This document shows positions 19,624 to 50,459 of a stretch of 64,000 nucleotides of DNA, piece after piece. The notes below the pieces were generated by a model. That model saw only the letters and a list, made by a program, of their open reading frames with translations, was not told where the DNA came from and did no database searches. The first letter of the stretch is position 1; every line of letters begins with the position of its first letter. Both the position numbers and the translations under genes were made by a program. Source of the stretch: an uncultured Pseudomonadales bacterium (lineage in GTDB: Bacteria > Pseudomonadota > Gammaproteobacteria > Pseudomonadales > Azotimanducaceae); the NCBI GenBank assembly GCA_964611345.1, contig CAZSYU010000004.1:17620-81619 (forward strand). Reading direction: 5' to 3'.

Positions 19624-19692
19624 TTAAGCATTTGCAAGGCAACTCAGGCAGCGGCTTACAAGGGTTAGACCCAGGTCACGAAACCATGCAGA

Positions 19693-31349: not shown

Positions 31350-31359
31350 TAAACAACAC

Positions 31360-32709
31360 TCAAAAACTCCCCTGAACGGCCGCGGCAGCACGTTGGTAGG
31401 CTTTGGGCCGAAAGGTCTCATCATTGCCAAGACCAGAAAAGAGTCGGTCTAGCGAACTTGCGAGCTGGTCTGCCTCGCCGAGATATTCTGTCAACGTAAC
31501 AATGCTGAGCAGACCCTGTTCTGCTGTACCGTAGTCGACCATACGCCGAGACGCTGCCTGGCCAATCAGCCGCTTGCGTAACGCCCGCACCTTGGCGGTG
31601 CTCACATTTTGCACTTGCCACAGCGCTGACAGCTCATCGATGAGGCTTTGCAGTTGTGTGACTGAAGTGCCAAGTGCCCTGGGGTCACCCTGACCTGCAA
31701 CTACCAGTGCATCGATCGCCCGCTTCAATGCAGCTGTTTTATCTGGAGAAAGCTCTTCACTAATTAACTGTAGCGTACGAAAATGATGATCCGCCAGGCG
31801 TAAGCTGCCAGGCTCAACGCCCTGCTGCCGGCGCTCCTGATACCAGCGCAAGTCCTCCGGATCGAGCCCATGATGACAACTCTGACAGTCAAACATCGAA
31901 AACTCTGGGATAAACTTGGCGCCAGTAAAATAGTCACTACCTAACATTTTCAGAAACGCTCGAGATCCTTCCACCTGCCCGGTGAGCCACAACTGCACGC
32001 CCGCAAAGTTGCCCTTACGCTCTTTATAATCATCATCAACCGAAAAGTGCGGCGGCTGATTGGTCGTGAAATTCTCGAGTTCAAAACTCAACCTGGGATG
32101 GCCCGCGCCCATTATGCGGTGTGTGGTGAACTTATCCTGTGTGCCCAGATGACAACTCAAGCACAACTGCGCTCGCGCCGCTGGCTCCTCTGATGGGTAG
32201 AGGCCATTGGCGATATTATCGGCATGGGTATTGCCTGGATCATCATGGGTTTTAATCCAGTTTTCTGAACCGCCGTGGCACGCCTCGCAACCGACTCCAT
32301 CGTTCAGACTGAACTCCGGGCCACGTTTGTCCTGAGGGACATTGTCAGCATGACAATCCAAACAAATATCTGCGGTATGAGCACTGGCTAAGCCAAGTTT
32401 CGTCGCCATCAACTTGGATTCTGGTGACAACAAGGTCTTGTAGGCACGCGAATGGTAGTCCTGCGCTCGCCATATGCGATGCTCATTCAACCATACGGTG
32501 CGGTTGTCCTGACGACTCGATTTGCCGTGACACGCCCCTCCAGCACAGGACGACGCGCCATAGTGAATATTATCGTCAATGGTGGATACGTCAGCCGAGA
32601 CACTCATACCACACATAAGAATGGCACCAGCACAAATCCACAACGCCACATCACGAGCGGCCTGCCACTTGCTTTGGTATCGGTATTGGCACTGGTATCC
32701 ACCCTTCAC
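31360..32709 (-). CDS. Periplasmic multiheme c-type cytochrome (4x CXXCH + 1x CX4CH) with a helical C-terminal domain
   Basis: Signal-peptide-like N-terminus (ALWICAGAILMCGMSVSA). Motifs CAGGACH, CLDCH, CEACH, CLSCH and CQSCH. The GTG start shares 1 nt with the upstream TAG. Confidence 0.8.
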   Translation of the reverse strand: MKGGYQCQYRYQSKWQAARDVALWICAGAILMCGMSVSADVSTIDDNIHYGASSCAGGACHGKSSRQDNRTVWLNEHRIWRAQDYHSRAYKTLLSPESKLMATKLGLASAHTADICLDCHADNVPQDKRGPEFSLNDGVGCEACHGGSENWIKTHDDPGNTHADNIANGLYPSEEPAARAQLCLSCHLGTQDKFTTHRIMGAGHPRLSFELENFTTNQPPHFSVDDDYKERKGNFAGVQLWLTGQVEGSRAFLKMLGSDYFTGAKFIPEFSMFDCQSCHHGLDPEDLRWYQERRQQGVEPGSLRLADHHFRTLQLISEELSPDKTAALKRAIDALVVAGQGDPRALGTSVTQLQSLIDELSALWQVQNVSTAKVRALRKRLIGQAASRRMVDYGTAEQGLLSIVTLTEYLGEADQLASSLDRLFSGLGNDETFRPKAYQRAAAAVQGSF

Positions 32710-35700
32710 TATCTGGAACCCCCAGCACTAGTTGCGGTTGGCGTGGGTGCTTGTTCTGCGATAGCTTCATTACTGTCACCACCGCCAGCGCTACGCCCAC
32801 GTACGGCTGTACCAGTGCCTTCTGTATCCTGCACAAACCAGGGCTCGCCCGATTCATTGAGGTACAGCTTGTTCATGTCTTCACGGGAGAGTGGTCGAGA
32901 ACCACGGCGCCCAAACACCGCAATCTGTCCACCGGTTTCGTCTACACCCCGATCCCGATCAAGCCCTTTTGATAGTGCCAGTGCTGGCCGCTTGGTGGGA
33001 TAACTCGCGATTAGTTTGGGGTTTGGCTCGGGGCTAAAGCCATAGAAGTTCGGCTGCAGGGAGGGCGACGTCAACTGCACAACTTTCAACCCACCCGCGC
33101 CATCGGCAACGTAGGCAAATAGCGAAGCATTGGTGCTCGCTACGACAACATCATGTGCGTCGACAATCTTGCCACCATCGTTGTAGGTCTGGAGCAGGCG
33201 CATATTGTCGGGTTGAGTGACATCTACCACTGCGAGACCTTGTGCTCCTGCGGCAACATAGGCATAGGTTCGCGCCACGTACACGCGCTTGGCATCACTC
33301 AACGTAATCGTCGACGCTGATAATTTCGGTGCTTTGTTATTGGTGACATCAACGGTCTGCAATCCGTCTGCCGTCGTTACAAACAAATAGCGGAATTGCA
33401 GCGCCGTCGCTCGAGGGTCGCTCATGGGTATGCGGCTCACCAATTGCGGCTCCAGCGGATTCTGCAAAGACACCACCAATACTTCCGTTGGTAACGTCAG
33501 ATAGGCAATAGACCCCCCCAGTGTGATGTGACGAACACCATTTAGCAGACCGTCTGGGTTCCAGGTGAGTGCCCGGCTGAGGTTATTGTTGCGCAGCTCG
33601 CCGTCTTGCAGTGTATTAACGTCAACCAGAATCAAACCTTCTTGGGCATCTGTGATCACCGCGTAGTTGTAAATTGGATGGAAGGGCTGCTCCTGATTGG
33701 TGATACGCATCAGATCGCCTTCGTTCTTAAACGGTGCAATAGGTTGCGTAGACGGCAGCGCCATGCAGGTAGCGTTCTTCGACTTCACCTGTGTACCCTG
33801 ACCGAGCGGACTGAACGGCGTTGTCACAATGCGCTGCGAAAAGCCCTTGTTCGCAACGTTGGCAATGTCATAAACGCGCATTCCGTTTTTACCTTCGGCA
33901 ACGTACAAGTACTCGCCGCGCATTTGTAGACAGTTTGCAGGACCCGAACGATGCCCATACGCATGCTTCAGTACCCCGCCACGCGCTTCATGCTGCGCAA
34001 AGAAATCAGGGTAGGCGTACTTTTGCAGGTAACTGCCAATCACCGCCTGGGGCTCTTCCCACTCGGTTACTTGCACCGCAGAGACCTCGCCATCACCACC
34101 AACCCAGGCGTTATAGCCAACGAAGTTAACGAAGTTGGTTCCGAACATAAGTAGCTGGGCCATAATCGCGTTGTTATCGTTCTGTTCCGACAGATGACAA
34201 TCGCTGCAATTCTTGGTCTCTGATAATCGCACAGTGTGCGGGAAGTGAGGATTGAAGGCCTGCGAACTGAAACCTGAAGCGGCAACCGGTGGTTGCTGAA
34301 TATAGATTTTCTCACGGTTAGCATTTGTCGATGACAGTACCAACGCCGAGGTAGAGCGCACTGGCGCTATCTTGCCACCCTTGGCCGGACCCCTTCGTCC
34401 AAGCAGAAACATCTGATCCCGGGCAACCTGGGGGTTATAGCTGGCAAAGTTTCGACTCTTGCCCCCTTCATAGTGGTGTCGTTCGGTTTTCTTGTTCGCC
34501 TCAATGGGCAAGTGACAACCACCGCAGCTCGTTGTCCAGGACGTATGACAGGTGTAGCACTCCATTTCATCATAGGAATGGGCCAGATCAACACTGGCAA
34601 CCTGATTACCCCACTCCTGTGTTTCGGTGTTGTTAGACATGGTTTTGGCGCGCGCTGCCTTCGAGTTGTAATCCGAGTGTTTCGGATCGACCGCGTTCTT
34701 TACCAGACTGACTTTCCACTCAAGATTTTCATCGAGTGCTGAGCGCTGGTAGAGATCCCCGTTCACCCACTCGAAGCGAGGCCGCCCACCAGGCACCCGA
34801 AGCGACAGAAAATCTGTTCCGCCACCAATCGCAGCTGGTCCGGAGGCGTAGAGATTGGGCAGCTCTTTTGAGGTGCCGTGGCAGTCTTTGCAATCAACCT
34901 CAACAGCAAGTGCTACTTCTCCCTGAATGTGGCCGTTGCCGTGGTTGTCCTGGGCAAAGTGGCAATCAACACAGTGCATCCCCACATCCAGGTGAATCGA
35001 CGACATATGTACCGCCTTGTCGAATTTCTTGGGATCGTCGTTTTCAACCACGTTGTTCTTCGCATCGAGCAGATTACCCGTGCGATCACGTTTGAATACG
35101 GCTCGAAAGTTCCAGCCATGACCGTGATAGTCGGCGAACTGGGTATCATTTAATTCCGGATTCAGCTCAGATACTGCCTCCAGAAAATCCGTGTCCGCCC
35201 ATTTGCCACGGGGCGCTGCTCCTTCCGGATTGCGCTCCAACACTTCATGAATCTCTTCGCTGGTCGGATATTGTTGCTGCTCCGGCCACATCGCAGGCGC
35301 GTCCGATTCGTAGTCCCACATGGTGTAGCCCAGGTAACTGTTCACAAACATGTTCGGCTGGTGCATATGACAAATCATGCATTGTGATGTGGGTATCGCA
35401 TTGGTAAAGCTGTGCTTGATGGGATGCCCTGATTCGTTTTTTGGAATGGTCGGATCAAGCGTTGCGGTTTTACCAGTGTGGCCATGCTGGGCGTAACCGC
35501 CTGAATGTCGCGGATCACGGTCGTTGGCATACACAACGTGACAGGATGCGCAGCCAGAATTGCGATAATCACCCGGTTGATCGTTAGTGCCCATAAACCA
35601 GGTAAAAGGGTCATTCAGACGTGTTTTAGTGATATTGATTACGGGGACAGAAATGCGCGCACCCGTTGCCGGGCCACGGTTTGATTGACGAATATCAGGT

Positions 35701-36638
35701 CGACCCGGTTCCTCCAGACGTTGCACCAAGCCTAAGGAGTTGGGTATAGCCGTTTCCGGGAACAGGTTAATGATGTTGCGGCCGCCGCGCTCAAACACTC
35801 GAAACACATCACCGGGCTTGGTCGTTTCCCAGGCTGGCAAAGGCAACAGTTGCGGCAAAATACCTTTCTCATCTTTCAGCTGCTCCGCGAGCACCGTATC
35901 TAGCACCGGGCCTTTCAACACCGCTGGCTTACCGTCGGTGGTGTAAGATTCACCCAATATGTACTGCTTGAACGGCAAGATGCCGTTGTTGTAGGCCGCA
36001 CCGCCCCAAAGCATGGCGCCTGTGGCGTGCAACGACCGGACAGATTTCTCAATCTGATCCTGGTGACATGAACCACACGCCAGCTCAACGACACGATAGT
36101 CAGAAGGATTCACAAAACGCACAAACTCGCGGCTTTCTTTATTTAGCAGCGTGTACGTGCGCTCCGGATTGGCAGAATGCGGGTAGTGCCAAGCGTCAGG
36201 GTACTCCGGCAGTATGTGTGCCAACTCCTTAACCGCAATGTACTCATCCGACTGGTTGCCTTTAGGCAGACCATGACCGCCTTCGCCACCACTCTTGGCA
36301 TTACGCGGCACAAACTGACTGGCATCACCGCCGTGGCAATCGGTACAACCCAGATCCACGCCCGGCGCGTTGTGCATGGTTTTTTGATCAGATTCGGTAT
36401 GGCAAGATACGCAACCCGCACTCTTTTCACTGGCAGCAATAGCGCTTGGCTGATTTGCCGGGGCCGCAGGTGCCATGACGTAGTTACGCTCTACTTTTAT
36501 TACTGCCTCAGAAGCTTCAACCCCTTCGCTCCATATAGTACTGAAAACAAAGCCAGCACCGGTCACGCCAGCTGCTAACAAACTCAACGAAACCAGTAAG
36601 CCGCGCAACTTCTCAATTTTTCGCATCGAATTGTTCAT
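32709..36638 (-). CDS. Decaheme c-type cytochrome fused to a C-terminal LVIVD-like beta-propeller
   Basis: N-terminal signal/anchor helix. Ten CXXCH motifs between about nt 36416 and 34193, including a paired CYTCHTSWTTSCGGCH. The C-terminal ~350 aa (about nt 33940-32900) has repeated GMRVYDI, GLILVDVN, GLAVVDVT and GLKVVQLT strands. ATG 36638 is preceded by GAGGAG. Confidence 0.8.
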   Translation of the reverse strand: MNNSMRKIEKLRGLLVSLSLLAAGVTGAGFVFSTIWSEGVEASEAVIKVERNYVMAPAAPANQPSAIAASEKSAGCVSCHTESDQKTMHNAPGVDLGCTDCHGGDASQFVPRNAKSGGEGGHGLPKGNQSDEYIAVKELAHILPEYPDAWHYPHSANPERTYTLLNKESREFVRFVNPSDYRVVELACGSCHQDQIEKSVRSLHATGAMLWGGAAYNNGILPFKQYILGESYTTDGKPAVLKGPVLDTVLAEQLKDEKGILPQLLPLPAWETTKPGDVFRVFERGGRNIINLFPETAIPNSLGLVQRLEEPGRPDIRQSNRGPATGARISVPVINITKTRLNDPFTWFMGTNDQPGDYRNSGCASCHVVYANDRDPRHSGGYAQHGHTGKTATLDPTIPKNESGHPIKHSFTNAIPTSQCMICHMHQPNMFVNSYLGYTMWDYESDAPAMWPEQQQYPTSEEIHEVLERNPEGAAPRGKWADTDFLEAVSELNPELNDTQFADYHGHGWNFRAVFKRDRTGNLLDAKNNVVENDDPKKFDKAVHMSSIHLDVGMHCVDCHFAQDNHGNGHIQGEVALAVEVDCKDCHGTSKELPNLYASGPAAIGGGTDFLSLRVPGGRPRFEWVNGDLYQRSALDENLEWKVSLVKNAVDPKHSDYNSKAARAKTMSNNTETQEWGNQVASVDLAHSYDEMECYTCHTSWTTSCGGCHLPIEANKKTERHHYEGGKSRNFASYNPQVARDQMFLLGRRGPAKGGKIAPVRSTSALVLSSTNANREKIYIQQPPVAASGFSSQAFNPHFPHTVRLSETKNCSDCHLSEQNDNNAIMAQLLMFGTNFVNFVGYNAWVGGDGEVSAVQVTEWEEPQAVIGSYLQKYAYPDFFAQHEARGGVLKHAYGHRSGPANCLQMRGEYLYVAEGKNGMRVYDIANVANKGFSQRIVTTPFSPLGQGTQVKSKNATCMALPSTQPIAPFKNEGDLMRITNQEQPFHPIYNYAVITDAQEGLILVDVNTLQDGELRNNNLSRALTWNPDGLLNGVRHITLGGSIAYLTLPTEVLVVSLQNPLEPQLVSRIPMSDPRATALQFRYLFVTTADGLQTVDVTNNKAPKLSASTITLSDAKRVYVARTYAYVAAGAQGLAVVDVTQPDNMRLLQTYNDGGKIVDAHDVVVASTNASLFAYVADGAGGLKVVQLTSPSLQPNFYGFSPEPNPKLIASYPTKRPALALSKGLDRDRGVDETGGQIAVFGRRGSRPLSREDMNKLYLNESGEPWFVQDTEGTGTAVRGRSAGGGDSNEAIAEQAPTPTATSAGGSR

Positions 36639-36649: not shown

Positions 36650-38629
36650 TCAAAACGCCAACACAAGGTTCATCTGGAAATAACCTGCTTCTTCATCCGG
36701 AAACAAATCCTTGAACCCCTTACCGGGAATCAGATGCGCATAGCTGGTGCGCACTACAATGTTCTGGGTTACCAGTGGTCGCCAGATTAGACTCAAGGAC
36801 AGGTCATGGCCGATCTCTTCGTCGATCGAGCCCTGGTTACGCACTGTTTCGAGCACCTGGGTGTGATCAAAGCGCATATAGTTGTAGTTGAAGCTCAATC
36901 GCAGTGATGGCAGGAGATCTGCATCGGCACCAATTCCAGCGAGTATCATCCCTGGATTGGTGAAGTTTGACTGGCCCTGTTCCTTGGACGATCGTAGATT
37001 GTTTAGCAGCCCATTCCGGGTAGACAAAGCAACGCGCCCCCCGCCAATCAACGGCACCGATTGCCGCAGCCAATAGCTGGTGTCTGAACCCGCGAATACA
37101 GGATTTTCGAATATGGCATCAAAGCCGGTTGCCCGATCGTCGAACGGGTCTTTATCACCACTGCCGTAGAGCAATGACCCACGAAGGCGCAACCAATCCA
37201 TATCAAAGCCGGCTTCAGCGGCAAAGAATCCAGCCCTGATATCAACCTTCCTCTCTTCGAACACACCCGGTTCAACGCTGCCTATCGCATAGTACGCAGA
37301 AGTTGTCAGATTAAGCCGACCAAAGTGGCCATCACCGTTGTAACCGAAGTACACCACATCGTATTTACGTGGCCGTTCGTCGCCAATGGAGGCGGGGCGA
37401 GCAATAAACTCGTTGTTGTCGAAGAAAAATTCATTGTCTTCCCGGTTACGGTTGTAAACAACGGTCGCCTGCGACACAAAACCAAGTTTCGGGAAGTCTT
37501 GCCAATAGAAGTTGGCTGCCACGACGTCGTCTTTGCGTAAATCTCGGGTAACGTCGTTCAACCCACTGTTAGTGTCCTTCTCGAGACGCCGGAAGTACGC
37601 AAGGTTGTACTGGAAGATGTTGTTATTGCGGTTACCAAACAGACGAACCCCTAGCTGGCTGTCCTGAAAAAGAAAGCCACGAAAATCGCTGTTAAACGGC
37701 TGAATACCAATTCGAAAACTGTCGAAATCGTATCGATCGCCTACGTTACGCAAGTGTCGATCATAGAACGCTGCCTGAATACCCAAGTGATGGTCAGTTC
37801 GTGACGTACCTCGGCTTGGTCGGGCGTTTACACCCTGAATCTCATCGAGATTTACATAGTTGATGCTCAGCACCGGCGTAAACCGAAACTCATGATCGGG
37901 AGGGCGAAACACCGTGTCGCCTTTCAGATACACAAATTCTGCAGCAAGATTTTGGTTAAAGAAGATTTGATCGGAAGTGCCAAAAATGTCGATGCCCCCG
38001 GGATCGTTAGTCGAGGACGCGCCCACAGGTGTCGGCACTTCGCGCACTTCCAATATACTGTCTGACAGCGCGTTAATGGAAAAGAACCATTCGTCGTCAT
38101 TGACGGGAATATCGCCCTTCAATACGTTGCGATTGTAGGGATCCCACCACGGATACTGATAACGAACCGAGTCATTGCCCACAACACCCCGGAACCCATC
38201 CAGGTTATCAACAATACGCCAGCGATCAGGCATGGCGAGCGTCACACAGTTCTGTGCACCCCCTTTGCAGTCTAGCGTCGGCGCCGCTGCCACACACTCG
38301 CTGCGGCCGGAACTGACGCAGGGCACTTTGGAAGGCGTATTTCTGCCACGTATCAGGCCATAGTCGAATACATTTTCTTCCCCGGCCGCACGCGCGGTCG
38401 AGCCTTCTACTCGATCGGCAGCGTTTTCTGCATCAGGACGCGGACACTCTACGCGTATGTAACCGGGTCGACGTCGATTGACTATGCGACCGCGATCGTC
38501 TGCGTAACAGACTTCAGCGGCTTCAACAGGCAGCGCGGACAGCATCAAGATCACCGTACCACCGGTGACACTGGCACCCAGCACGACCGCACATGACAGA
38601 GCTGCAGACAGTAATGATAGAACTTTCAT
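36650..38629 (-). CDS. Putative large outer-membrane beta-barrel (porin-like) protein with a Cys-rich N-terminal extension
   Basis: Signal peptide (MKVLSLLSAALSCAVVLGA...). Six Cys in the first ~100 mature residues. Long alternating aromatic/hydrophilic strands follow, with a C-terminal ...QMNLVLAF ending in Phe as in OMPs. The ATG directly abuts the upstream TAG. Confidence 0.6.
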   Translation of the reverse strand: MKVLSLLSAALSCAVVLGASVTGGTVILMLSALPVEAAEVCYADDRGRIVNRRRPGYIRVECPRPDAENAADRVEGSTARAAGEENVFDYGLIRGRNTPSKVPCVSSGRSECVAAAPTLDCKGGAQNCVTLAMPDRWRIVDNLDGFRGVVGNDSVRYQYPWWDPYNRNVLKGDIPVNDDEWFFSINALSDSILEVREVPTPVGASSTNDPGGIDIFGTSDQIFFNQNLAAEFVYLKGDTVFRPPDHEFRFTPVLSINYVNLDEIQGVNARPSRGTSRTDHHLGIQAAFYDRHLRNVGDRYDFDSFRIGIQPFNSDFRGFLFQDSQLGVRLFGNRNNNIFQYNLAYFRRLEKDTNSGLNDVTRDLRKDDVVAANFYWQDFPKLGFVSQATVVYNRNREDNEFFFDNNEFIARPASIGDERPRKYDVVYFGYNGDGHFGRLNLTTSAYYAIGSVEPGVFEERKVDIRAGFFAAEAGFDMDWLRLRGSLLYGSGDKDPFDDRATGFDAIFENPVFAGSDTSYWLRQSVPLIGGGRVALSTRNGLLNNLRSSKEQGQSNFTNPGMILAGIGADADLLPSLRLSFNYNYMRFDHTQVLETVRNQGSIDEEIGHDLSLSLIWRPLVTQNIVVRTSYAHLIPGKGFKDLFPDEEAGYFQMNLVLAF

Positions 38630-40822
38630 CTATAAGCCCTCGCAAGGTCGTTGAATGGAGGGATCAAACGAACCACCTTCCAGGAACGGCGATTGCGGAC
38701 ACTGGATGTAACGCAAGCGCGTATCGCGAGGCATGAGCTGGTCCGCACGTATTTCGGGTGGCGCGTTGTTTATGCTGCCCGTCTCAAGACCAGCCTCATG
38801 CAAGCCCAAAAACGAGATCATGTCGTCCTGATCTACGCCGTCACCGGATACGCCGATGCCACCTATGAGCATGTTGCCGCGATAGATAGGCACGCTGCCC
38901 GGAAAAATCTGAAAGCCATTAGCTACCCTGTTAGTCATCGCGGCCGGGCTGATAGATACCAGCCCGAGATCGATGAGCCCAGGCGTCGAGGTGCCCGGAT
39001 TAAACCCGGCACCGGCACACCCCTGGACCACATCTGGCGCGAGCGCCCCATCGGTGACGGAGAACAGCACATGTTGCACCAGAGCGTTAATCGCCAGATC
39101 GAGCTGCAAACCCGTCGAGAAAGGGCTCCACTCACCAGCTGGCTTGCTCAGTGGGCCAGCGCCTCGCTCATCAATACCATCAGGAAAAAATGGCCGCGAC
39201 AAATTGCCACCGGCTCGATCAGAAAACGCAAACGCGCCATTGGCCAGAGCCAGCGGATCTTCGAGGAAGTTACGCAGGTCGGTGACGTAATCACCGAGCG
39301 ACAGAACTTGAAACAACTCCGGGCCAGCATCTGTAAATCCAACATAATTAGTGGGCGGCAGAGCGTTCAAAAAGTCTGCGCTACTGGCGCTGGAAAAAAA
39401 TGCGGCGGTTCGTGCTTTTTGTAAGGAGACGTCCGCACCAAACACTGGAGCATCGCGAGTACGCACCATTCCCAGTATTTCACCATTGGTATCAACAACA
39501 GAGATAGTGACCCGGGCCGGTGAATTCAACGGCCGGCGAATCTGTGCACGCGCACTATTGGCTACCCTTAAGGCGTTACTCAACAGGGACTGGGTTTCCG
39601 CTACCGTAAGCTGATTACCGCCAGTTTCAACGGCGTCAGTGCCGGGTCGTGCCGGAAACCGATTGACATTGGCAGCGTTTACAAAAACAAACGCATCCTG
39701 ACCATCAAACCCACTTACCGCCGGCCTGATACCTGACGCTGGCGTACCGAAGGCCGTGCCGGCGCGAATGGTCCCGTCAAAATAGCCGGTAACATTAACA
39801 AGTGCACCCGTCGCGGTTGAGAACGCAGGCGCGTTGGCCGGATCACTCATCAGGTCTTCGACACCTGCATCACTGAAGCGAAAAGTCTTGCCATCTACGG
39901 TAATTCGATTGGCACGACGGTCGAGGGGCGCAGACCAACCGAAAGACGCAGCGACCGCAATCAGTTCGTCGATGTCTGTATCAATGTCACCAATGGCCGG
40001 GTCTATGCCATAGCGACCGTCCGCAATGACGCCCACGCCACCTACGGGCACACCGTTGCGATACAAAGGCAGGCCACCTGGATCAGCAGCCAAACCCAAT
40101 GGTGAACGATGGGGTCCTGGTTCTGCGGCTCCGCCACTAAAACGCTGTGAAAAGTCCGAACAGGAAAGCTGCGAAAACTGCACGCCAAACAGTGGTCCGG
40201 CCGGCTGGTTTAGCTCGCCGGGGTTAAAGTGCTCTTGCACGATCTGATTCGCGGTGCGAGTAGTAAACGCATTACCTTCACTCGATAGATAAGCGCCTGT
40301 TATAGCCTTAGCGATGGCACCAAGCTGGTCGATATTAAAGGGCACGGCTGCTGTAGGGAGCCGCAATCCCTCGAGGCCACCACTAATCAGCGGCGTCCCA
40401 TCGTCTGCCGTGGCAGTTGCAACCAGCATGGATCGATCCGCAGGATCACCCATGCGGAACACACCAAGCACATTACCCACCCGATCCGTTACCGCAATGG
40501 TGGCCTGGACATTTCGCGCCTGTGCCTCAGCCACACCTTGAGCGATGATTGTTTCTACATCAGCAACAGAGAGCGATTCGGGTACCGTTGTGCCGCACTC
40601 ACCAGAGCATGCCGGATCGGGACCGGTTACTCCTAGGGGTTCTTCCCGACCACCGCCGCCACAGCCACTAAATTGCGCAAGCACGAATACTGCGGCCGCA
40701 ATTTTTAGTTTCAGCGACGGTTTGTAACGGTCATTCCGTTTAAAGCGTTCATAACGTTTATAGGTTTCTTTGACAAAACCATGGCCCACACTCTGACCCT
40801 CTACCATCTTGGTTGCGTTCAT
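38630..40822 (-). CDS. Lipoprotein with two GlcG/HbpS-like (DUF336, heme-binding/degrading fold) modules
   Basis: Lipobox LAQFSGC. Module 1 has ATIAVTDRVGNVLGVFRMGD ... GGLPLYRNGVPVGGVGVIADG. Module 2 has VTISVVDTNGEILGMVRTRDAPVFGADVSLQKARTAAFF ... GSVPIYRGNMLIGGIGVSGDGVDQDD. The ATG overlaps the upstream TGA (ATGA) and is preceded by AGGAGG. Confidence 0.65.
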   Translation of the reverse strand: MNATKMVEGQSVGHGFVKETYKRYERFKRNDRYKPSLKLKIAAAVFVLAQFSGCGGGGREEPLGVTGPDPACSGECGTTVPESLSVADVETIIAQGVAEAQARNVQATIAVTDRVGNVLGVFRMGDPADRSMLVATATADDGTPLISGGLEGLRLPTAAVPFNIDQLGAIAKAITGAYLSSEGNAFTTRTANQIVQEHFNPGELNQPAGPLFGVQFSQLSCSDFSQRFSGGAAEPGPHRSPLGLAADPGGLPLYRNGVPVGGVGVIADGRYGIDPAIGDIDTDIDELIAVAASFGWSAPLDRRANRITVDGKTFRFSDAGVEDLMSDPANAPAFSTATGALVNVTGYFDGTIRAGTAFGTPASGIRPAVSGFDGQDAFVFVNAANVNRFPARPGTDAVETGGNQLTVAETQSLLSNALRVANSARAQIRRPLNSPARVTISVVDTNGEILGMVRTRDAPVFGADVSLQKARTAAFFSSASSADFLNALPPTNYVGFTDAGPELFQVLSLGDYVTDLRNFLEDPLALANGAFAFSDRAGGNLSRPFFPDGIDERGAGPLSKPAGEWSPFSTGLQLDLAINALVQHVLFSVTDGALAPDVVQGCAGAGFNPGTSTPGLIDLGLVSISPAAMTNRVANGFQIFPGSVPIYRGNMLIGGIGVSGDGVDQDDMISFLGLHEAGLETGSINNAPPEIRADQLMPRDTRLRYIQCPQSPFLEGGSFDPSIQRPCEGL

Positions 40823-42663
40823 TCCTTTCCACCTCCTGAGTCACCACCGGCGACTCTCCCCGCGTTGGTCGCCCACTGTTGCGCGCTTGCTTGCCCACCT
40901 AGTAAGGGTGCTCCATCAAAGCCCGCAAAGTTCCGCGGGTGATACGCGTGACAATCTATGCACGCCAATGCCACCTGAGATACACTATCGCGATCGCCAT
41001 GGCACTCATAACAGGTGGCCATCGTTGGCATAAGCAGATCGGTCGCACTGGCAGAATTCTTGGCGGCGTGACAGGTATCGCAGGCCTGATCACCCACCAA
41101 CAGCTCGCTACTTTCGCCATCACGCAACACCTGATGAGCGATATGATCGAATCGCGCATCGGGCACAAAATCCTGTGGCAGCTTCACTGGATGCACCCAG
41201 AACTGGTCTTCGATATCCTTCGAATCCTGGCGTTCAAACTGATGACACGCAGCACAGCCGATATCACCGGCAAACTGAGCTTCGACGATCTCTTTTAGTT
41301 CACGCTCCACACAGACGTCTGGCGCGTCAGTACAACCGGCCACTCGATCCGGACGATCTGGCAAACGGCGATAGGCAAACAGCTCACCCGTGTCATCAGG
41401 ATCGAAGTATTTTTTCAGTAACATGCCTTCAAGCGCCAACACCGCTTCTTTTAAACGCGCATGTGGCAAGCTCCGATCAGGGTCGGACTCATCAAAATCA
41501 AGTTGGTGACAATCCTGGCAATGCGCTTCCATGCTGACTGGCAAGAAATGTTCGCCGTCGATGCTCATGCTGTGGCAGGTTCCGCAAGTGAGAGCTTCAC
41601 CGGTTACTAAATCTGACACTTCGCCAACATCCAGATGAATATCGTGAGGAAACACAAGTTCCGAAGTTTCTGGCGAATTCGCTATCTCAGTTTCGCTGAC
41701 CGCTTCGATCCGCCATCCATCATCTTTCGATCCGGCAAACTCCTCGAGCGTGAAGCGCGGTAGCGAGTATTCGTAAACCGGATGGGTTTCTGGAGTGAAG
41801 CCCGTCACTGCTGCTAACGGATCTATATCGCGATGAATGCCACCACCAGAGTCAGTGCCTGCTGCGTGGCATTGCACACAGTCACCATCGGCGTCGCGAA
41901 CTAAAGTGCTCGGCTCGTTGTGCTCCCGATGACAGACGCCACAACGCTCATTTGCATTGGCACCGAAGTCGAGCCCGCCAGACCCAAGTTCGCCAGGCAC
42001 GGAGGTCGCGGCTAAAAACGCGCTGCTGACATGATCTTGAATTGAACCGTGGCACGCCTCACAAGCCTCGTTTTGAACACGTTCGAAGGGTTTGCCGTGA
42101 CAACCGGCACAATTTTCGCCCGTGACCAACTCATGCGCGGCATGCAGCTCACCAGACGTCCATACATGATCTGAAAAGAGCCCACTAACCGGCGCCTGGG
42201 TGGCGCGTTCGCCGGAAAACAGAAAGGGCACAATAAACATACCCAGTAACACAACCAGTGCACCAATCCATGCGAACGCACGTTTCGCTAAAAACGTATC
42301 AGCCAAGCTGAGTTTTTGTGTTGACAACACCGAAACATGATCTGCTGCACGACGCACTATCAACATGCCGTCAAAACCACCCGGCGCTTCTTCTACATGC
42401 ACGCTAGCACCAGGTAGCTCTATGAGATCGCCGGATCGCAAAACACAGCGCTTAACCACATTGCCGTTAACCTGCACACCATCACGAGTGGTGCTGCGCA
42501 AGACTAGCCCTTCTCGTCCCAGCTCAATACTCGCGTGGCGCAGTTCAAGCAGCGGTAGTTGCAGGTGCGCATCGTTAGCAGACCCGAGAATAACGCGATC
42601 AATCCCGTGTTCTTGGTCTATGTGGCCGCCTGCTTCCCTGGCGATGCGTATCAAGAGGTCCAT
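40819..42663 (-). CDS. FHA-like domain / single TM / periplasmic decaheme c-type cytochrome fusion protein
   Basis: The N-terminal ~100 aa are FHA-like (RVILGS...LRHASIEL...TRDGVQVNGNVV...GDLIELPG). One TM (AFAWIGALVVLLGMFIVPFLF). Then ten CXXCH motifs (CAGCH, CEACH, CGVCH, CVQCH, CGTCH, CQDCH, CAACH, CDTCH, CYECH, CIDCH). ATG 42663 lies 4 nt after the upstream TAA. The track ORF starts at 42693. Confidence 0.8.
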   Translation of the reverse strand: MDLLIRIAREAGGHIDQEHGIDRVILGSANDAHLQLPLLELRHASIELGREGLVLRSTTRDGVQVNGNVVKRCVLRSGDLIELPGASVHVEEAPGGFDGMLIVRRAADHVSVLSTQKLSLADTFLAKRAFAWIGALVVLLGMFIVPFLFSGERATQAPVSGLFSDHVWTSGELHAAHELVTGENCAGCHGKPFERVQNEACEACHGSIQDHVSSAFLAATSVPGELGSGGLDFGANANERCGVCHREHNEPSTLVRDADGDCVQCHAAGTDSGGGIHRDIDPLAAVTGFTPETHPVYEYSLPRFTLEEFAGSKDDGWRIEAVSETEIANSPETSELVFPHDIHLDVGEVSDLVTGEALTCGTCHSMSIDGEHFLPVSMEAHCQDCHQLDFDESDPDRSLPHARLKEAVLALEGMLLKKYFDPDDTGELFAYRRLPDRPDRVAGCTDAPDVCVERELKEIVEAQFAGDIGCAACHQFERQDSKDIEDQFWVHPVKLPQDFVPDARFDHIAHQVLRDGESSELLVGDQACDTCHAAKNSASATDLLMPTMATCYECHGDRDSVSQVALACIDCHAYHPRNFAGFDGAPLLGGQASAQQWATNAGRVAGGDSGGGKE

Positions 42664-42667: not shown

Positions 42668-43543
42668 TTACCAGTACCAAAACACGACGACAATATGGAT
42701 AACGAGAGCGAACAAAACAGCTATGGAAAGCGGCACATGAATATACAACCAGGCCTGCAACAAGCCCTGCATTTGCACATCCCGACGCACGCGCCGCAAC
42801 AAATCCTGACGGCGCGCAGTGAGGGACATCAGATGGCGCAACGCTGTTGTTTCTTTTCCATCGCTCGCTTGCGTTGCAGCCTCCGATAGAAAGCGCAACA
42901 GATTACGTTGATCAAAATTGCTGCGGTGCTGATTGCCTTCAGAGCTGGCTTCCTGGAACGTAGATCGATCGCTGCCCAGCAGCTGCCGGAGAAAACCACC
43001 TCCGACTCGGGTTTGGTCCAAGGCCGAGCGCACTGTATTGTTTATATCGTCAGAGCAATCCGCCGCTCGCTCGAGGCTCGCCAGCTCAAGACTTTCCAAC
43101 TCTTCAATATTCTCTGCTCGACTGCGCGTTTTACGCACCGACGATAATCGTCGCGGCAGCGAGAGGTAGACAAACATGCCAAACACGCCGCTGGCGATCA
43201 CCGCCATCATTAACCAGAAGAACAGCGAATGAATGTTCCAGCCGAGTTGCCCAGCGCTATGGAACAGGCTTACCCCGATGAGTGCAGTACCCAGATAAAC
43301 GTGCGCACTTACCCAACCTTTTAGCGACCCACCTCGCCCATAGCGGCGCTTGCGCACTCCCAGATAGTTCAACCAAAAGATGAGCAATCCAGCAATGATG
43401 CCAAGCGTCAGTCCTTGCCAGGTACCGCCACTAGGTGGAGTCGTTGCGTCTTGCAGCCAATACAGTCCAAAGCTGATCGCAAGCAATCCAAGCGCTACCC
43501 ACAGATACCGACCGCCTGCATGTTGCAACGCGTTCTGACTCAT
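42668..43543 (-). CDS. Five-TM inner-membrane protein with two His pairs (candidate di-heme b electron carrier)
   Basis: Four N-terminal TMs, a ~130-aa hydrophilic loop and a C-terminal TM. His81/His95 lie on TM3 and His269/His283 on TM5, each pair spaced i/i+14. The ATG overlaps the upstream TGA (ATGA). Confidence 0.55.
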   Translation of the reverse strand: MSQNALQHAGGRYLWVALGLLAISFGLYWLQDATTPPSGGTWQGLTLGIIAGLLIFWLNYLGVRKRRYGRGGSLKGWVSAHVYLGTALIGVSLFHSAGQLGWNIHSLFFWLMMAVIASGVFGMFVYLSLPRRLSSVRKTRSRAENIEELESLELASLERAADCSDDINNTVRSALDQTRVGGGFLRQLLGSDRSTFQEASSEGNQHRSNFDQRNLLRFLSEAATQASDGKETTALRHLMSLTARRQDLLRRVRRDVQMQGLLQAWLYIHVPLSIAVLFALVIHIVVVFWYW

Positions 43544-46086
43544 AGCGCGTCTCGCTCAATAATGCGCACAAAGTCTTTTGGACTGACGCGTTGCGCCGCG
43601 CCGGTCGGACAAGCGGATACACAGGCAGGACCACCGGTAACATCAAAGCAGGCATCACACTTCTTGGCCTTTTTCACCTGCCCTTCGGGTCCCTTCGCAG
43701 CTTTATCTTCGCCAGGACCAGACCCCATGCCAAACAACAGCCAGCTGAACAAACCCGGCTTCGCCGGCGCCTCAGGCGCCATCCGAATCACATCGTACGG
43801 GCAGTTACTCTGGCAGTTGCCGCAGCCAATACAGGAATCATCGATAAACACTTCGCCATCACTCGCCCGGTGAATGGCATTAGGGGGGCAATCCTTCATG
43901 CAGTGCGGTTGCTGACAGTGACGACACGATATGGGTATATGAACGTGGGCCATCGTACTGCCTGATTTCCGGTCGAGCCGCGAAATACCGTCGTGTGTTT
44001 CAGCACACGCGGTCTCACAGTTATCGCAACCGACGCAGAGATATTCATCGATAATGAGAGCGTTAGTGGCCTCTCCCAAACCGTCGCCCAACATAAATTC
44101 CAAAACCTGAGAAGACTCACGACGAGTTTCCCACTGCGAGTACTTCATCAAATCGCGACTCGCCCGCGCATCGACAATATCTTCCTGCTCCATATCGAAC
44201 ATCATCAAGCGTCGATACTGTTCCTCAGTGATCTCCAGCGTTTCAGTTAACACCGACGCCTCAGCAACATTGGTTCGTGCGTTCTGGTTGTACATGGCCA
44301 TAAAACCGACCATTTCTCCGGCCCGTTCTTCGGCGATCAGATTTCGCTGTTCATCAATTTCGTTGAATATCAACACGGTGCCGGAGCGAATGAGATGCAG
44401 ACTGTTACTGTCATCCCCAGGTTCCCACAAGCGTTGACCCGCTTTAAAACTATGCTGCTGAATCTCATCCGCAATGGGGCGCAGCTCCTCAACCGTCGCC
44501 GCCGGAGCAAAGTGGCGCTGCAACTCGCGCACAATGAACACCCAGTCAATGCCTTCGCGCACCGCATCATTGGAGGCGATGAGTTTCAAAATGGTTCGGC
44601 GTGGTGTTTCGAGAACAATGCAGTTGTCGCCCGCCATGGCTGTCTCGGGTCTGGGCTGGCCAGCAATAAGACTCATTTCCCCGAAGAACTCACCCCGCCC
44701 AAGGCGTCGTTCACCACCAGCAAAACTCGACGACCCAAGCACCACTTCGCCGTCGAGTACCGTATAAAACGACACACCAAAGTCACCTTCGGTATAAAAC
44801 TCATGTCCTTTTGGAATAACTTTGGTCACACTGGGCTGGGCCTTTGAATACGCCTCATCGCCAGAAATTTTTCGTTCCACGTCCACAAGCGACAGCTCCG
44901 CGTCCTCGATGCTGTCTTCGTCAGGCAGCCCGACATACAGCGAGCTTTCAATCACCATCTCGCGAAATGCCAGCACACTAAGCTGACGAAACATCGGAAT
45001 CCGTGACATGAACAGACTAATGAGTTCGTCGGCATCCCGATCATAGGGCAGGCCAGCAAACTGAAACTCAATCAGCTCATGATCTGCCGGTTTGACGAAA
45101 TTGCCATTCGCAAACTCGACAACATCATAGCCCTGGTTCATCGCCTGCTTGATGAGTGGGCACCCTGCCAACGCACCGACCACATAAAGGCCTGGCACAC
45201 TACTTTCGTAGTGTTCGCTCAATACCGGCAACGCATCAGCGCCAGCGTGGCTCATCGTCATGCCGCAGCCTTCGAGAAAACCACGGGGGGGAATAGAACC
45301 AAGCCGGGCAATAATGCGATCGGCCTCAATCAACTCTTCGCCTTCTGCGGTGGCGATGGTCACCTTCAGGTCCGGACCTGTACCGTCACCCGCAACGATG
45401 CTGTCGATTGAGGCGGAATACAAACACCCCAGGCTAACGTCATCATTGTTCGCGGCTGCGAGAATGGCGTTTAGGTTACCTTCTTTAGCGCGGGCAAATT
45501 CCGCCTTGCGATTTAGAATGTACACCTGGTTTTGCTCAGACAGCGCCAACGCATTTTCAATCGCGGAATCGCCAGCCCCAACCACAATTATGGTCTCGTT
45601 GCTGTATTCGCCTGGATCGTCCAGCTGATACTGAATATTCGGCAGCTCTTCGCCAGTTACTCCCAAGCGGCGAGGGTTACCCTGGGTGCCGATCCCGAGC
45701 ACAACGTTTGCCGCTGTTACCGTCTGACCATTGGCAAGCTTTATCTCAAAACCGCCGCGCTCACCCTGAATACCAGTAACTTCGGCGCCGTATTGCACAT
45801 GCAGTGCTTGATCTTCGGCCGCGGTGTCCCAAATACCTAGAATTTCTTCGCGCTTGCCGGCATCAAATCCCACATCACTACGCAAACGCAAATAGCCCGG
45901 CTCGGCCATAACGTGCTTGCCTTTCTGATACCGATAGATGGTCTTGGAGAGATGATCGAAGCCTTCAAGCAGCACATAGCTGGGAGTGGTCGCGCCACTT
46001 TGCTTGTCACGCGCTGCTGCGCGCGCTGCTGCCGACAACCCCGCTGGTCCAGAACCAACGATAGCTAACTGATATTGCACTTCCAT
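43540..46086 (-). CDS. Fusion protein: FAD/NAD(P)-binding pyridine nucleotide-disulfide oxidoreductase + two cyclic-nucleotide-binding domains + 4Fe-4S ferredoxin domain
   Basis: Two Rossmann motifs (LAIVGSGPAGLSAA and IIVVGAGDSAIENA). cNMP phosphate-binding cassettes FFGEMSLIAGQPRPETAMA and AGEMVGF...ARTNVAEA. Four Cys-cluster motifs (CVGCDNCETAC, CRHCQQPHCMKDCP, CIGCGNCQSNCP, CDAC...CVSACP). No signal peptide. ATG 46086 is preceded by GGGGAGA. The track ORF starts at TTG 46092. Confidence 0.85.
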   Translation of the reverse strand: MEVQYQLAIVGSGPAGLSAAARAAARDKQSGATTPSYVLLEGFDHLSKTIYRYQKGKHVMAEPGYLRLRSDVGFDAGKREEILGIWDTAAEDQALHVQYGAEVTGIQGERGGFEIKLANGQTVTAANVVLGIGTQGNPRRLGVTGEELPNIQYQLDDPGEYSNETIIVVGAGDSAIENALALSEQNQVYILNRKAEFARAKEGNLNAILAAANNDDVSLGCLYSASIDSIVAGDGTGPDLKVTIATAEGEELIEADRIIARLGSIPPRGFLEGCGMTMSHAGADALPVLSEHYESSVPGLYVVGALAGCPLIKQAMNQGYDVVEFANGNFVKPADHELIEFQFAGLPYDRDADELISLFMSRIPMFRQLSVLAFREMVIESSLYVGLPDEDSIEDAELSLVDVERKISGDEAYSKAQPSVTKVIPKGHEFYTEGDFGVSFYTVLDGEVVLGSSSFAGGERRLGRGEFFGEMSLIAGQPRPETAMAGDNCIVLETPRRTILKLIASNDAVREGIDWVFIVRELQRHFAPAATVEELRPIADEIQQHSFKAGQRLWEPGDDSNSLHLIRSGTVLIFNEIDEQRNLIAEERAGEMVGFMAMYNQNARTNVAEASVLTETLEITEEQYRRLMMFDMEQEDIVDARASRDLMKYSQWETRRESSQVLEFMLGDGLGEATNALIIDEYLCVGCDNCETACAETHDGISRLDRKSGSTMAHVHIPISCRHCQQPHCMKDCPPNAIHRASDGEVFIDDSCIGCGNCQSNCPYDVIRMAPEAPAKPGLFSWLLFGMGSGPGEDKAAKGPEGQVKKAKKCDACFDVTGGPACVSACPTGAAQRVSPKDFVRIIERDAL

Positions 46087-46212: not shown

Positions 46213-46836
46213 ATGGCTTTTTTCGACGAACTTAAACGCCGTAAAGTGTTTCGTGTCACCAGCCTCTACGCTGTGACTGCGTGGGGAGCATCCATGGGTG
46301 CGGCCGAACTCTTCCCCACCTTTGGCCTGCCCGATGAATCGGTGCGCTGGTTCGTTGTGGGTGCCTTCGGCTTGCTGCCAGTTGTCGCATTGCTTGCCTG
46401 GCTTTACGAACTGACACCCGGGGGTATCGAACGTGACGCCGCCGATTGTCCCGACACTACCACGCACCTGGCACCCCAGCGCGCCGCCAACGAGTTGACT
46501 GCGAGCTGGCGCGACAAAAACTGGACCTTTCAGAACACCTTCACCATCGGCCGCGATATCACCTGTGACTTGCATATCGACGATCCGAAAATATCGCGTC
46601 GCCATGCTCGGGTAGTCGCTCAACATCAGCATTGGTACCTCGAAGACCTGGGCAGCAGCAATGGCACCAGCGTCAACGGCGAACTCATTACGCGAACCAG
46701 TCTCTCGGGCTCGGCCAAAGTTACGCTTTACGAGGGCGGCGACGAGATCACCTTGAGCATCAAAGTTCCGGGTGGCGTCGCCACTGTGCTCGCAGACCCC
46801 CCTCCGAACAATGCGATCACCCAACGTGATACCTAA
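46213..46836 (+). CDS. Membrane-anchored FHA-domain protein
   Basis: N-terminus MAFFDELKRRKVFRV, then two TMs, then a canonical FHA domain (TIGRD ... ISRRHARV ... GSSNGTSVNG). Start at ATG 46213. The track ORF starts at 46135. Confidence 0.8.
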   Translation: MAFFDELKRRKVFRVTSLYAVTAWGASMGAAELFPTFGLPDESVRWFVVGAFGLLPVVALLAWLYELTPGGIERDAADCPDTTTHLAPQRAANELTASWRDKNWTFQNTFTIGRDITCDLHIDDPKISRRHARVVAQHQHWYLEDLGSSNGTSVNGELITRTSLSGSAKVTLYEGGDEITLSIKVPGGVATVLADPPPNNAITQRDT

Positions 46837-49800: not shown

Positions 49801-50459
49801 TTGAGTGCAAAGCTCTGTGACAACGCATCATAGTCGTCACCCGCGCTCGCCGTGCCATCTGCGGTGGCAACGACCACGTCCGCGGTAACTGCAGCGGCTG
49901 GGCCTGGATTGAGCGTTAGCAGCGACACACTGGCAATGTCCGCATCTTCAGCAACCGACACATCCGGACCAATCGACACCTGTAATGGATCGTCATCACT
50001 AATGAGGAGATCAACCGCAAGATCAGGCACGGGCTGGTTAAAGCACGCAGGGCTGTTAGTGGCATCAACGAACAGCGCAAAGCCTTCCTGCATAGCTTCG
50101 ACTTCCGCATCGTCCGAAATGGGTATGGTTACCACCTCGGTGGTAGATACATCAGAGTTCGTTGATGCTGGGAGTGAAAGCGCAACGGATGTAGCCACTG
50201 ATGTGTAGTCCACGTCTTCGGTTGCGGGGGCAACGGTAGCCGGAGCAACGTCATCCGTTGTGACAACCACGCTTACATCACAAGTACCGTTTGCCGATTC
50301 CATCTCTGTTGCCGACAAGCTGAGAGTGATTTCCAACGCACCACCATTCTCCGTTATCGTTGTATTCCCCAGTGCTTCAAACGTGATCGCCTGAGCAAGC
50401 GGCGCTCCAAAGAATGCGCAAGACAGCACCAGACTACCCGCGAGTTTTGCTAATTTCAC
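46857..50459 (-). CDS. Autotransporter with a Calx-beta-repeat passenger
   Basis: Signal peptide MKLAKLAGSLVLSCAFFGAPLAQA. Repeated ~100-aa modules end in D-rich motifs (TIEDNDVG, AIQDDDTG, TILDDQDVEGDEEF, TINDDDSG). The C-terminal ~280 aa look like an autotransporter beta-domain ending in ...MRYEKTF. GTG start preceded by AGGAGG. Confidence 0.8.
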   Translation of the reverse strand: MKLAKLAGSLVLSCAFFGAPLAQAITFEALGNTTITENGGALEITLSLSATEMESANGTCDVSVVVTTDDVAPATVAPATEDVDYTSVATSVALSLPASTNSDVSTTEVVTIPISDDAEVEAMQEGFALFVDATNSPACFNQPVPDLAVDLLISDDDPLQVSIGPDVSVAEDADIASVSLLTLNPGPAAAVTADVVVATADGTASAGDDYDALSQSFALNVNNPDAVVEVSIVDDADVESDETFSVSITSISAFSNGFPVLTAVQPGTAVVTIEDNDVGQGGGGPVTAVDVNLEFVDDLVFFRESAPFAILEVVPSAAPVADVTVDFTTVDGNADSPADYIAVSGTLTFPAGAQGPQTIMIPLMNDSDDEGQEVFDVVLSDAVGATLNNGDTGVVAIQDDDTGVSSDVTLRGAPGSTVTFTVDVTQDTSAFATEQAFSDLTITGAQPATVTYSAVIPANAVDGQRFEDGIVDEIDFPPPAVVFVTLIAETATTSTTEFGFAVVGSNIDEGQGSIDLQIQRTGDLSNSGQVSFQTLGGGTATAGADFEAITGTVVFAPGEAGPAFATVTILDDQDVEGDEEFQVELFDPVGGVVSTGDSLAIVTINDDDSGLPPVISSPGTVQFAVEELAVNEGDGTITLEVTRINGSDGDASVEFLTVEDTATDGEDFTGTSGVLTWPAGDSDPRTISIELIPDPDAPFGGPGDFSTSSDFSTSSNGSVRSANDKNSNKSGVVAPLVIEGVENFSVILQNPVGVTLGTPAQVTISISDLGRDIAGIPGLSANQREVAAWFDTNCERLIASNPTNADQQDLAGICGNLRSVNTTDDQVRDALDAINAEELATAAITTLRLLGDQHGNLQRRLNGLRSGATGIDLSGLSVSVSGQQISGAALEEMLHGLTWGAVGGESDFGRWGFFVDGKVDFGDRDASEANNGYDFDSSTITVGADYRVRDNFFLGGAFGYANADVDFAGGGGLDFDSYRGSLYSTFFLADSYYLDGLVSYGTTDYESDRRISYTDSGGAIDRTATGSTDGTIFTVGFGTGFDFNRGPLTFGPNLGVYYDDVDVDSYTESGAGGLNLNIGDQDAKSLTVNAGGHASWVINTKWGVLIPNARIDWVHEFEDSVEEVGIRFAADPFANDPTNPSAPIIVRTEQPDENYFVWSVGASAQFIRGFSGFVTYQATEGYNDLELNEVSFGMRYEKTF

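Follow-up and report, generated by a model that had tools for sequence, protein, structure and literature searches.

The window analysed here, 64,000 nucleotides of contig CAZSYU010000004.1 (positions 17,620 to 81,619, forward strand) from an uncultured Pseudomonadales bacterium of the family Azotimanducaceae (assembly GCA_964611345.1), encodes an 848-amino-acid (aa) protein in which a flavoprotein domain, two cyclic nucleotide-binding (CNB) domains and a four-cluster ferredoxin module are fused in one polypeptide. The reading put first here, with confidence about evenly divided for and against, is that this protein forms the cytoplasmic electron-input head of a trans-envelope conduit that bypasses quinones, with the CNB domains acting as a gate between the flavin and the iron–sulfur clusters. 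The fusion, its domains and the adjoining five-transmembrane-helix (5-TM) protein are located as follows in the window, with the supporting evidence in brackets:

43540..46086, minus strand: the flavoprotein–CNB–CNB–4x[4Fe-4S] fusion, 848 aa (open reading frame, Pfam, NCBIfam, public gene calls)
45130..46074, minus strand: thioredoxin reductase (TrxR)-fold FAD/NAD(P)H domain, aa 5–319 (Pfam, Foldseek, alignment, conservation in 201 sequences)
44569..44820, minus strand: first cNMP-binding domain, CNB-1, aa 423–506, with the cassette FFGEMSLIAGQPRPETA (Pfam, alignment with the regulatory subunit of protein kinase A, PKA-R, conservation)
44176..44484, minus strand: second cNMP-binding domain, CNB-2, aa ~535–637, with the degenerate cassette GFMAMYNQNARTNVA, Glu being replaced by Phe (Pfam; CRP match at aa 535–637)
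43573..44058, minus strand: four-cluster ferredoxin module, aa 677–838, of the HycB/HydN/ArrB/PsrB type (Pfam, NCBIfam, conservation, hydropathy)
42668..43543, minus strand: 291-aa 5-TM protein, a candidate di-heme b transmembrane wire (conservation, AlphaFold2, synteny)

The 848-aa gene starts with an ATG, 8 nt 5' of which lies the Shine-Dalgarno sequence GGGGAGA, and the public gene call on an identical 175-kb metagenome scaffold gives the same product. The original prediction had put the protein at 850 aa; the open reading frame stands, and the two additional residues are gained only from an in-frame TTG at 46092. The same prediction had described the domain architecture, which the Pfam and NCBIfam scans bear out, and had quoted the motifs GSGPAG, GAGDSA, FGEMSL...RPETAMA (within FFGEMSL...PRPETAMA) and four Cys motifs, all of which are present. 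It was also right that the gene opens an operon: the gene is the first in a co-directional, tightly packed run, overlaps the 291-aa gene by 4 nt (ATGA), and is followed by further junctions of -4 to +11 nt. The protein is assigned to the cytoplasm, without a signal or Tat peptide, because hydrophobicity stays below transmembrane level in every 19-residue window and the Rossmann fold starts as early as residue 5, in agreement with the earlier claim. Promoter and terminator scans returned nothing above chance, and an Rfam scan of 25–56 kb of the window gave no match. Thousands of metagenomic proteins share this architecture, which databases label merely as a "cyclic nucleotide-binding domain-containing protein".

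The flavoprotein domain matches Pyr_redox_3 and Pyr_redox_2 over aa 5–319 (E 2.5e-28 and 3.2e-21) and carries two dinucleotide-binding motifs, GSGPAG at aa 11–16 (GxGxxG) and GAGDSA at aa 170–175 (GAGDxAxENA). In the following, residue conservation is counted over 201 relatives and synteny over the 80 best loci. After the second dinucleotide motif, the near-invariant residues N192-R193...E196-F197-x-R199-x-K201 align with the HRRDxFRA NADPH motif of TrxR, which supports the earlier proposal that the flavoprotein uses NAD(P)H. That proposal had also called the domain thioredoxin-reductase-like, which holds for the fold and fails for the redox-active CxxC: the CAVC of Staphylococcus aureus TrxR aligns to YQ-LDDP of the 848-aa protein, where Q152, Y153, L155, D157 and P158 hardly vary among the relatives. 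The Cys that YpdA uses in catalysis, located in its GGGPCG motif, corresponds to A15, a position occupied by Ala in 170 relatives, Gly in 25 and Cys in 1.

The best NCBIfam scores of the domain are 102.7 bits for YpdA (TIGR04018, cut-off 339.9) and 59.2 bits for TrxR (TIGR01292, cut-off 343.45). Membership of the low-Mr thioredoxin reductases is ruled out by the latter score together with the absent CxxC, and membership of the YpdA/Bdr bacillithiol-disulfide reductases by the former score together with the Ala at the Cys position. Since the CxxC position reads YQLDDP, the YpdA Cys position is Ala or Gly and both family scores lie below cut-off, the domain should act as an NAD(P)H:iron–sulfur or ferredoxin reductase and not as a disulfide reductase. 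The top Foldseek matches, at E ~1e-20 to 1e-23, are YpdA/Bdr, the CxxC-less TrxR-type ferredoxin-NADP+ reductases (FNRs) and IruO, and the domain shares with TrxR-type FNRs the TrxR fold, two dinucleotide motifs and the lack of a CxxC. The AlphaFold2 model has a predicted local distance difference test score (pLDDT) of 70–90 in this part; of the whole model, only the flavin and CNB domains can be used. A single Cys outside the clusters, C221 in the NAD(P)H domain, is conserved in 197/201 relatives.

At the C-terminus, Fer4_11, Fer4_7 and related 4Fe-4S models cover aa 677–838, and NCBIfam groups the region with AegA, ArrB, DmsB, NrfC and HydN-type four-cluster proteins. Four Cys motifs follow one another in the canonical order of the Fer4_11 (HycB/DmsB/NrfC) type: C684/687/690/694, C721/724/729/733-P, C752/755/758/762-P and C810/813/822/826-P, each of the 16 cysteines being conserved in at least 199 of the relatives. 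Among solved sequences, the nearest are HycB of formate hydrogenlyase, HycB3/4 of HDCR, ArrB and PsrB. Between the third and fourth motifs lies a conserved hydrophobic loop, KPGLFSWLLFGxGxGPGE, which may be a membrane- or partner-docking element.

Between the flavoprotein and the clusters, the cNMP_binding model (PF00027) matches two stretches (E 9e-29, 99.7 bits against a gathering threshold of 27.5). In alignments, the two domains correspond to the CNB-A/CNB-B pairs found in PKA regulatory subunits and in PKG, and these cAMP/cGMP binders are also the best solved matches. The alignment of CNB-1 with the PKA-R cassette FGELAL..PRAATV needs no gaps, and all 201 relatives retain Gly469, Glu470 and Arg479 of this domain. 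CNB-2 has G594 and R604, the latter kept in 195/201. More distant relatives that lack the flavoprotein carry canonical R-[SN]-A-T cassettes. Because Gly469, Glu470 and Arg479 are invariant and the cassettes of the distant relatives are canonical, cyclic-nucleotide binding is likely ancestral and is plausible for CNB-1 of the present protein; CNB-2 is probably impaired. Control of the 848-aa protein by cAMP or cGMP, as the original prediction had proposed, is a plausible reading of the sequence. A second non-cluster Cys, C489 in CNB-1, is conserved in 180/201 relatives.

The 291-aa protein encoded next has no Pfam family. Its AlphaFold2 model shows five helices (pLDDT 81.7), and a large cytoplasmic insert spans aa 128–258. 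Five histidines, H81, H95 (TM3), H105, H269 and H283 (TM5), are 97–99% conserved in the family, which has Hx13H pairs on TM3 and TM5. The distribution of K/R-rich loops (6 and 22 K+R vs 0) places one His of each pair near each membrane face. Such pairs are the expected signature of two stacked bis-His hemes, making the protein a candidate for carrying them. A ferric-reductase-like or cytochrome b561-like identity was considered and is unsupported beyond sub-threshold Pfam matches, there being no fold or sequence match in the PDB.

Downstream of the 5-TM gene, on the same strand, the window contains:

40819..42663, minus strand: 614-aa protein (624 aa from an upstream TTG) with a cytoplasmic FHA domain at the N-terminus, followed by one TM helix and, on the periplasmic side, a decaheme c domain
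38630..40822, minus strand: 730-aa protein of three HbpS-like/GlcG repeats (E 9.5e-23) with a probable lipoprotein signal
36650..38629, minus strand: 659-aa porin-like outer-membrane protein with a signal peptide, a C-terminal Phe and no Pfam family
32709..36638, minus strand: 1309-aa decaheme cytochrome with C-terminal LVIVD repeats
31360–32709, minus strand: 449-aa cytochrome c554-like protein with four CxxCH motifs and CAGGACH (Cx4CH)
26327–27622, minus strand: class III adenylate/guanylate cyclase domain protein (32.6 bits), 16 kb downstream

The 614-aa protein has 10 CxxCH motifs, and exactly ten are found in 66/73 homologues; its FHA match (24.3 bits) lies above threshold when the domain is scanned alone. 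ExtM-like and MtrC-domain matches are also found, and the 1309-aa LVIVD decaheme is the probable cell-surface terminus.

This arrangement is widely conserved. More than 6000 database proteins match the 848-aa protein at E <=1e-10, the best 120 all being full length; an exhaustive search at E <=1e-30 yields 480 clusters at 50% identity, and a scan with one genome per species finds a relative in at least 586 species. Listed hosts include Steroidobacteraceae, Halieaceae, Woeseiaceae, Wenzhouxiangella, Marinobacter salexigens, Cognaticolwellia, Spectribacter and the alphaproteobacterium Oceanibacterium, together with Sphingobium and marine Rhodospirillales, and a further alphaproteobacterial branch comprises Zavarzinia and Nisaea. 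Among the 80 loci, the 848-aa gene is followed by the 291-aa gene in 77, the decaheme in 73, the HbpS-like gene in 62, the porin in 54 and the LVIVD decaheme in 55, the missing genes mostly reflecting contig ends. The order from the 848-aa gene through the 291-aa protein, decaheme, HbpS-like protein and porin to the multiheme cytochrome is kept in Gamma- and Alphaproteobacteria, with one small extra gene in alphaproteobacterial contigs. On the Sphingobium herbicidovorans megaplasmid, the first three and the last three genes form separate, convergent operons; the system therefore consists of an inner-membrane module and an outer-membrane module.

Variant architectures support the order flavoprotein, Fe–S wire, transmembrane hemes, c hemes. 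Two relatives without the flavoprotein are real proteins of 474 and 506 aa with the CNB and Fe–S parts. The gene after each encodes a protein whose N-terminus shows homology (E 9e-12 and 4e-9) to the 291-aa protein and whose C-terminus bears 5 CxxCH motifs; judged by homology, the His-rich TM module is here naturally fused to a c-type pentaheme cytochrome. At one of these loci, a 69-aa ferredoxin lies immediately upstream with a ferredoxin-reductase-type flavoprotein beside it, which is the same input chain in pieces; at the other, a class III cyclase adjoins. An apparent split into a 328-aa flavoprotein and a 498-aa CNB–FeS protein (locus L090, 357–2866) was not used as evidence: it is a frameshifted full-length metagenomic gene, since the tail of the first open reading frame is out-of-frame junk and the second begins at the equivalent of residue 316.

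The mechanism proposed here builds on domains, motifs, conservation, synteny and gene fusions, all observed directly. NAD(P)H, probably NADPH, would reduce the FAD of the TrxR-fold domain, which, having no redox-active Cys pair, would work like a TrxR-type FNR. Single electrons would then travel along four [4Fe-4S] clusters of the C-terminal module, assuming that flavin and clusters are loaded as the motifs predict, and this module would dock, through an inferred interface, onto the neighbouring 5-TM protein from the cytoplasmic side. There, two predicted bis-His b hemes (H81+H269 near the cytoplasm, H95+H283 near the periplasm) would carry electrons through the inner membrane to the membrane-anchored decaheme, from which they would pass through the module of HbpS-like protein, porin and LVIVD decaheme to an extracellular acceptor. 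Candidate acceptors include Fe(III), Mn oxides, humics and O2, the last giving superoxide. The CNB tandem, placed between the flavin and the Fe–S wire, would most likely serve as a ligand-operated gate on flavin-to-cluster transfer through a ligand-driven rearrangement, with a cyclic nucleotide as the presumed ligand. The original prediction had likewise proposed electron exchange with the downstream membrane protein and heme chain, and this gains support from the six-gene synteny across the 80 loci, from the 5-TM–pentaheme fusions and from the separate ferredoxin and ferredoxin-reductase-type flavoprotein found nearby in a relative.

Several observations weigh against this proposal. The evidence for every family member is sequence-based, and the Fe–S part of the AlphaFold2 model has a pLDDT below 50, the model yielding no inter-domain geometry. 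The 291-aa model has no Foldseek match in the PDB (best E 0.48), a profile search against PDB sequences likewise gave none, and the link to Ferric_reduct and cytochrome b561 models is sub-threshold only; the 5-TM protein may moreover hold a quinone site. In CNB-1, the residue after Arg479 is Pro here and variable in relatives, and the residue at +2 is usually Glu and not the usual Ala, so that the cassette reads R-P-E against the canonical R-[AST]-A. In CNB-2, the position of the ribose-binding Glu is Glu in 123 relatives, Gln in 42, Asp in 24 and Phe in 10, and is Phe in the present clade. The cyclase of the window was rejected as a systematic partner, its homologues lying within 10 kb in only 3/80 loci, a count that covers homologues of this cyclase alone.

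The CNB and cyclase observations feed the alternative that survives best, in which the conduit is the same and its CNB domains are not cyclic-nucleotide sensors, serving instead as a spacer, a dimerisation unit or a binder of some other ligand. CRP/FNR-type domains in CooA, NtcA and CprK bind a different ligand, and the Pro after the cassette Arg offers no backbone NH, next to a Glu where Ala is near-universal, in addition to the Phe of CNB-2 and the scarcity of cyclase homologues. Set against this are the invariance of G469, E470 and R479, the retention of R604, the canonical cassettes of the distant relatives, one of which has a cyclase adjoining, and best solved matches, PKA-R and PKG, that are genuine cAMP/cGMP binders. 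This alternative is regarded as rather unlikely.

In a second alternative, the 848-aa and 5-TM proteins would form a quinone-coupled enzyme whose b hemes sit at a Q site as in NarI, FdnI or HyaC, acting as an NAD(P)H:quinone reductase or a quinol-fed cytochrome branch. In NarGHI and FdnGHI, the standard design has a four-cluster protein seated on a di-heme b anchor, and faint matches to the prokaryotic cytochrome b561 model (PF01292) are seen for the 291-aa protein and, as precomputed matches, for 3 homologues. However, these matches fall far short of threshold, and no such anchor matches in fold. In relatives, the 5-TM module also continues directly into a c-type pentaheme domain, and the decaheme follows the 5-TM gene at 73/80 loci with gaps mostly at contig ends, leaving quinone coupling improbable.

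The direction of flow within the preferred conduit is favoured to be outward, because that direction is downhill and aided by the membrane potential and because the named hosts are mostly aerobic heterotrophs. Inward flow would imply uptake from Fe(II), a cathode or a partner cell, the 848-aa protein reducing NAD(P)+ or another cytoplasmic acceptor. TrxR-type FNRs and Fe–S wires are reversible, sequence alone gives no direction, and the porin–cytochrome systems MtoAB and PioAB, which run inward in iron oxidisers, provide a precedent. Yet entry into a negative-inside cell, up to -320 mV, would be opposed by both redox and membrane potential, and the named hosts (Halieaceae, Steroidobacteraceae, Marinobacter, Sphingobium) are mostly aerobic or facultative heterotrophs; inward flow is consequently given little probability. 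The weakest alternative, a disulfide reductase of the thioredoxin or bacillithiol-disulfide type or a redox/second-messenger sensor without bulk electron flux, can draw on YpdA and TrxR as best NCBIfam matches and on YpdA/Bdr among the top folds, but is very improbable given scores far under the family cut-offs, no CxxC, Ala or Gly at the YpdA Cys position in 195/201 relatives, and 16 invariant cluster cysteines with translational coupling to a heme-type membrane protein, which argue for a wire.

Taken as a whole, the array represents a real, widespread system, best described as a variant porin–cytochrome conduit with logic at the inner membrane resembling that of NADPH oxidases and ferric reductases (NOX/FRE). 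In NOX/FRE, as in the proposed scheme, cytoplasmic NADPH feeds a flavin, then two stacked b hemes held by His pairs on TM3 and TM5, then an outside acceptor, and the His-pair geometry is similar. In contrast, NOX/FRE proteins have 6 TM helices as opposed to 5 here, the present system interposes a four-cluster wire and CNB domains and keeps its subunits separate, and Pfam scores stay below threshold, with no fold match: a TM-module relative scores 17.1 bits against the Ferric_reduct cut-off of 28, and the 291-aa protein of the window has no PF01794 (Ferric_reduct) match even at E up to 10. That the system is a NOX/FRE counterpart spanning two membranes, a second-messenger-gated and possibly phospho-regulated valve exporting NAD(P)H electrons without quinones, is offered as a tentative and rather doubtful extension.

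The closest published parallel is the ptd operon, described in a preprint on Alphaproteobacteria of oxygen-deficient zones, in which PtdE is a CNB/4Fe-4S protein, PtdF a ferric-reductase-like TM protein and PtdG a decaheme. Besides a porin and two more cytochromes, it encodes an FAD/NAD(P) oxidoreductase as a protein of its own (PtdC), and the operon has been suggested to serve extracellular electron transfer. By published description only, not by sequence, the two systems share the trio order of CNB/Fe–S protein, TM protein and decaheme; both have a linked porin and further multiheme cytochromes, and both occur in marine Alpha- and Gammaproteobacteria. They differ in that the flavoprotein is separate in ptd and fused in the 848-aa protein, and in the outer part, where the porin is accompanied by a pentaheme with a beta-sandwich (PtdA) and a tetraheme (PtdD) in ptd but by a triple HbpS-like protein and an LVIVD decaheme here. 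The preprint counts two clusters, whereas the 16 invariant cysteines indicate four in the present family. Alphaproteobacterial relatives that were examined have the gene order of the window and not the ptd outer module. In literature searches, this preprint was the only prior description of the architecture found; the PCC3 paper and a survey of outer-membrane cytochrome diversity do not mention it.

Among characterised proteins, YumC of Bacillus subtilis, FNR1/2 of B. cereus, the FNR of Chlorobaculum tepidum and IruO of S. aureus share the CxxC-less TrxR fold, are among the top fold and sequence matches, and pass single electrons from NADPH to Fe–S or iron acceptors. Identity to them is just 17–22%, and they are free ~330-aa dimers with a C-terminal flavin-capping extension, an aromatic residue of the C-terminal subdomain stacking on the flavin in TrxR-type FNRs, whereas here the C-terminus runs into the CNB and Fe–S domains. 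NarH, HycB and HydN share four CxxC-type motifs and the lack of a Tat signal, and NarI resembles the 5-TM partner in its two trans-membrane His pairs, predicted for the latter. Unlike the NarH–NarI and FdnH–FdnI pairs, the 848-aa system has no catalytic molybdo- or hydrogenase subunit, the 291-aa anchor has no detectable homology to NarI, FdnI or HyaC, and the output would be a c-type multiheme chain and not a quinone site. On the outer side, MtrCAB, the Geobacter Pcc/Ext conduits and PCC3 likewise combine a decaheme in the periplasm with a porin-like barrel and a multiheme cytochrome at the surface but are fed from quinol dehydrogenases (CymA, ImcH, CbcL). To our knowledge, no porin–cytochrome conduit is recorded with a cytoplasmic NAD(P)H/Fe–S head, a CNB domain or an HbpS-like component, and the known extracellular electron-transfer pathways start at the quinone pool.

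If the proposal is correct, it would add an entry route to extracellular electron transfer, from NAD(P)H via a flavin, four Fe–S clusters and two b hemes straight to multiheme cytochromes, and a gated one, carried by hundreds of aerobic Proteobacteria of sea and soil that are not considered electroactive. In oxic oceans, sediments and soils, where the host bacteria abound, the module could bear on iron and manganese cycling or the production of reactive oxygen, and it might underlie the regulated extracellular reduction of Fe(III)/Mn or the superoxide production of heterotrophic bacteria. Cultured hosts such as Marinobacter salexigens, Sphingobium herbicidovorans MH, Pseudohalioglobus lutimaris and Steroidobacter make the prediction directly testable, and bioelectronic engineering would gain a useful part from an NADPH-coupled electron output gated by a nucleotide.

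Some features of the outer components and of the surrounding genes are recorded here. In the N-terminal ~100 aa of the 614-aa decaheme, the usual phosphothreonine-binding Arg, Ser and Asn of the FHA domain look replaced by eye; an FHA match is also found in alphaproteobacterial homologues. The Sphingobium counterpart of the 730-aa protein carries the NCBI label "heme-binding protein", and an HbpS-like component between the periplasmic decaheme and the porin is unusual for a porin–cytochrome module. In alphaproteobacterial contigs, a ~450-aa gene homologous to the c554-like one is found upstream of the operon in divergent orientation. Upstream of the 848-aa gene, the window contains:

46213..46836, plus strand: 207-aa FHA-domain protein, the nearest upstream gene, divergent and sharing a 126-bp intergenic region with the 848-aa gene
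46857–50459, minus strand: Calx-beta autotransporter
50491–52437, minus strand: caspase (Peptidase_C14) and Sel1 protein

The genes flanking the operon include those for a Ser/Thr kinase, a PP2C phosphatase and two more FHA proteins (46213–46836 on the plus strand; 52561–54168, 30273–31430 and 29180–30235 on the minus strand), and kinase homologues lie within 10 kb in 23 of the 80 related loci. This setting suggests phospho-signalling control of the conduit besides the CNB domains. Homologues of the autotransporter and the caspase–Sel1 protein recur beside the operon in about 16 of the 80 loci. On the S. herbicidovorans megaplasmid pMSHV (locus L084), genes for calcineurin-like metallophosphoesterases, a superfamily that includes the class III cyclic-nucleotide phosphodiesterases, flank the inner-membrane trio (19236–20084 and 11119–11862), one of them directly downstream of the trio on the same strand.

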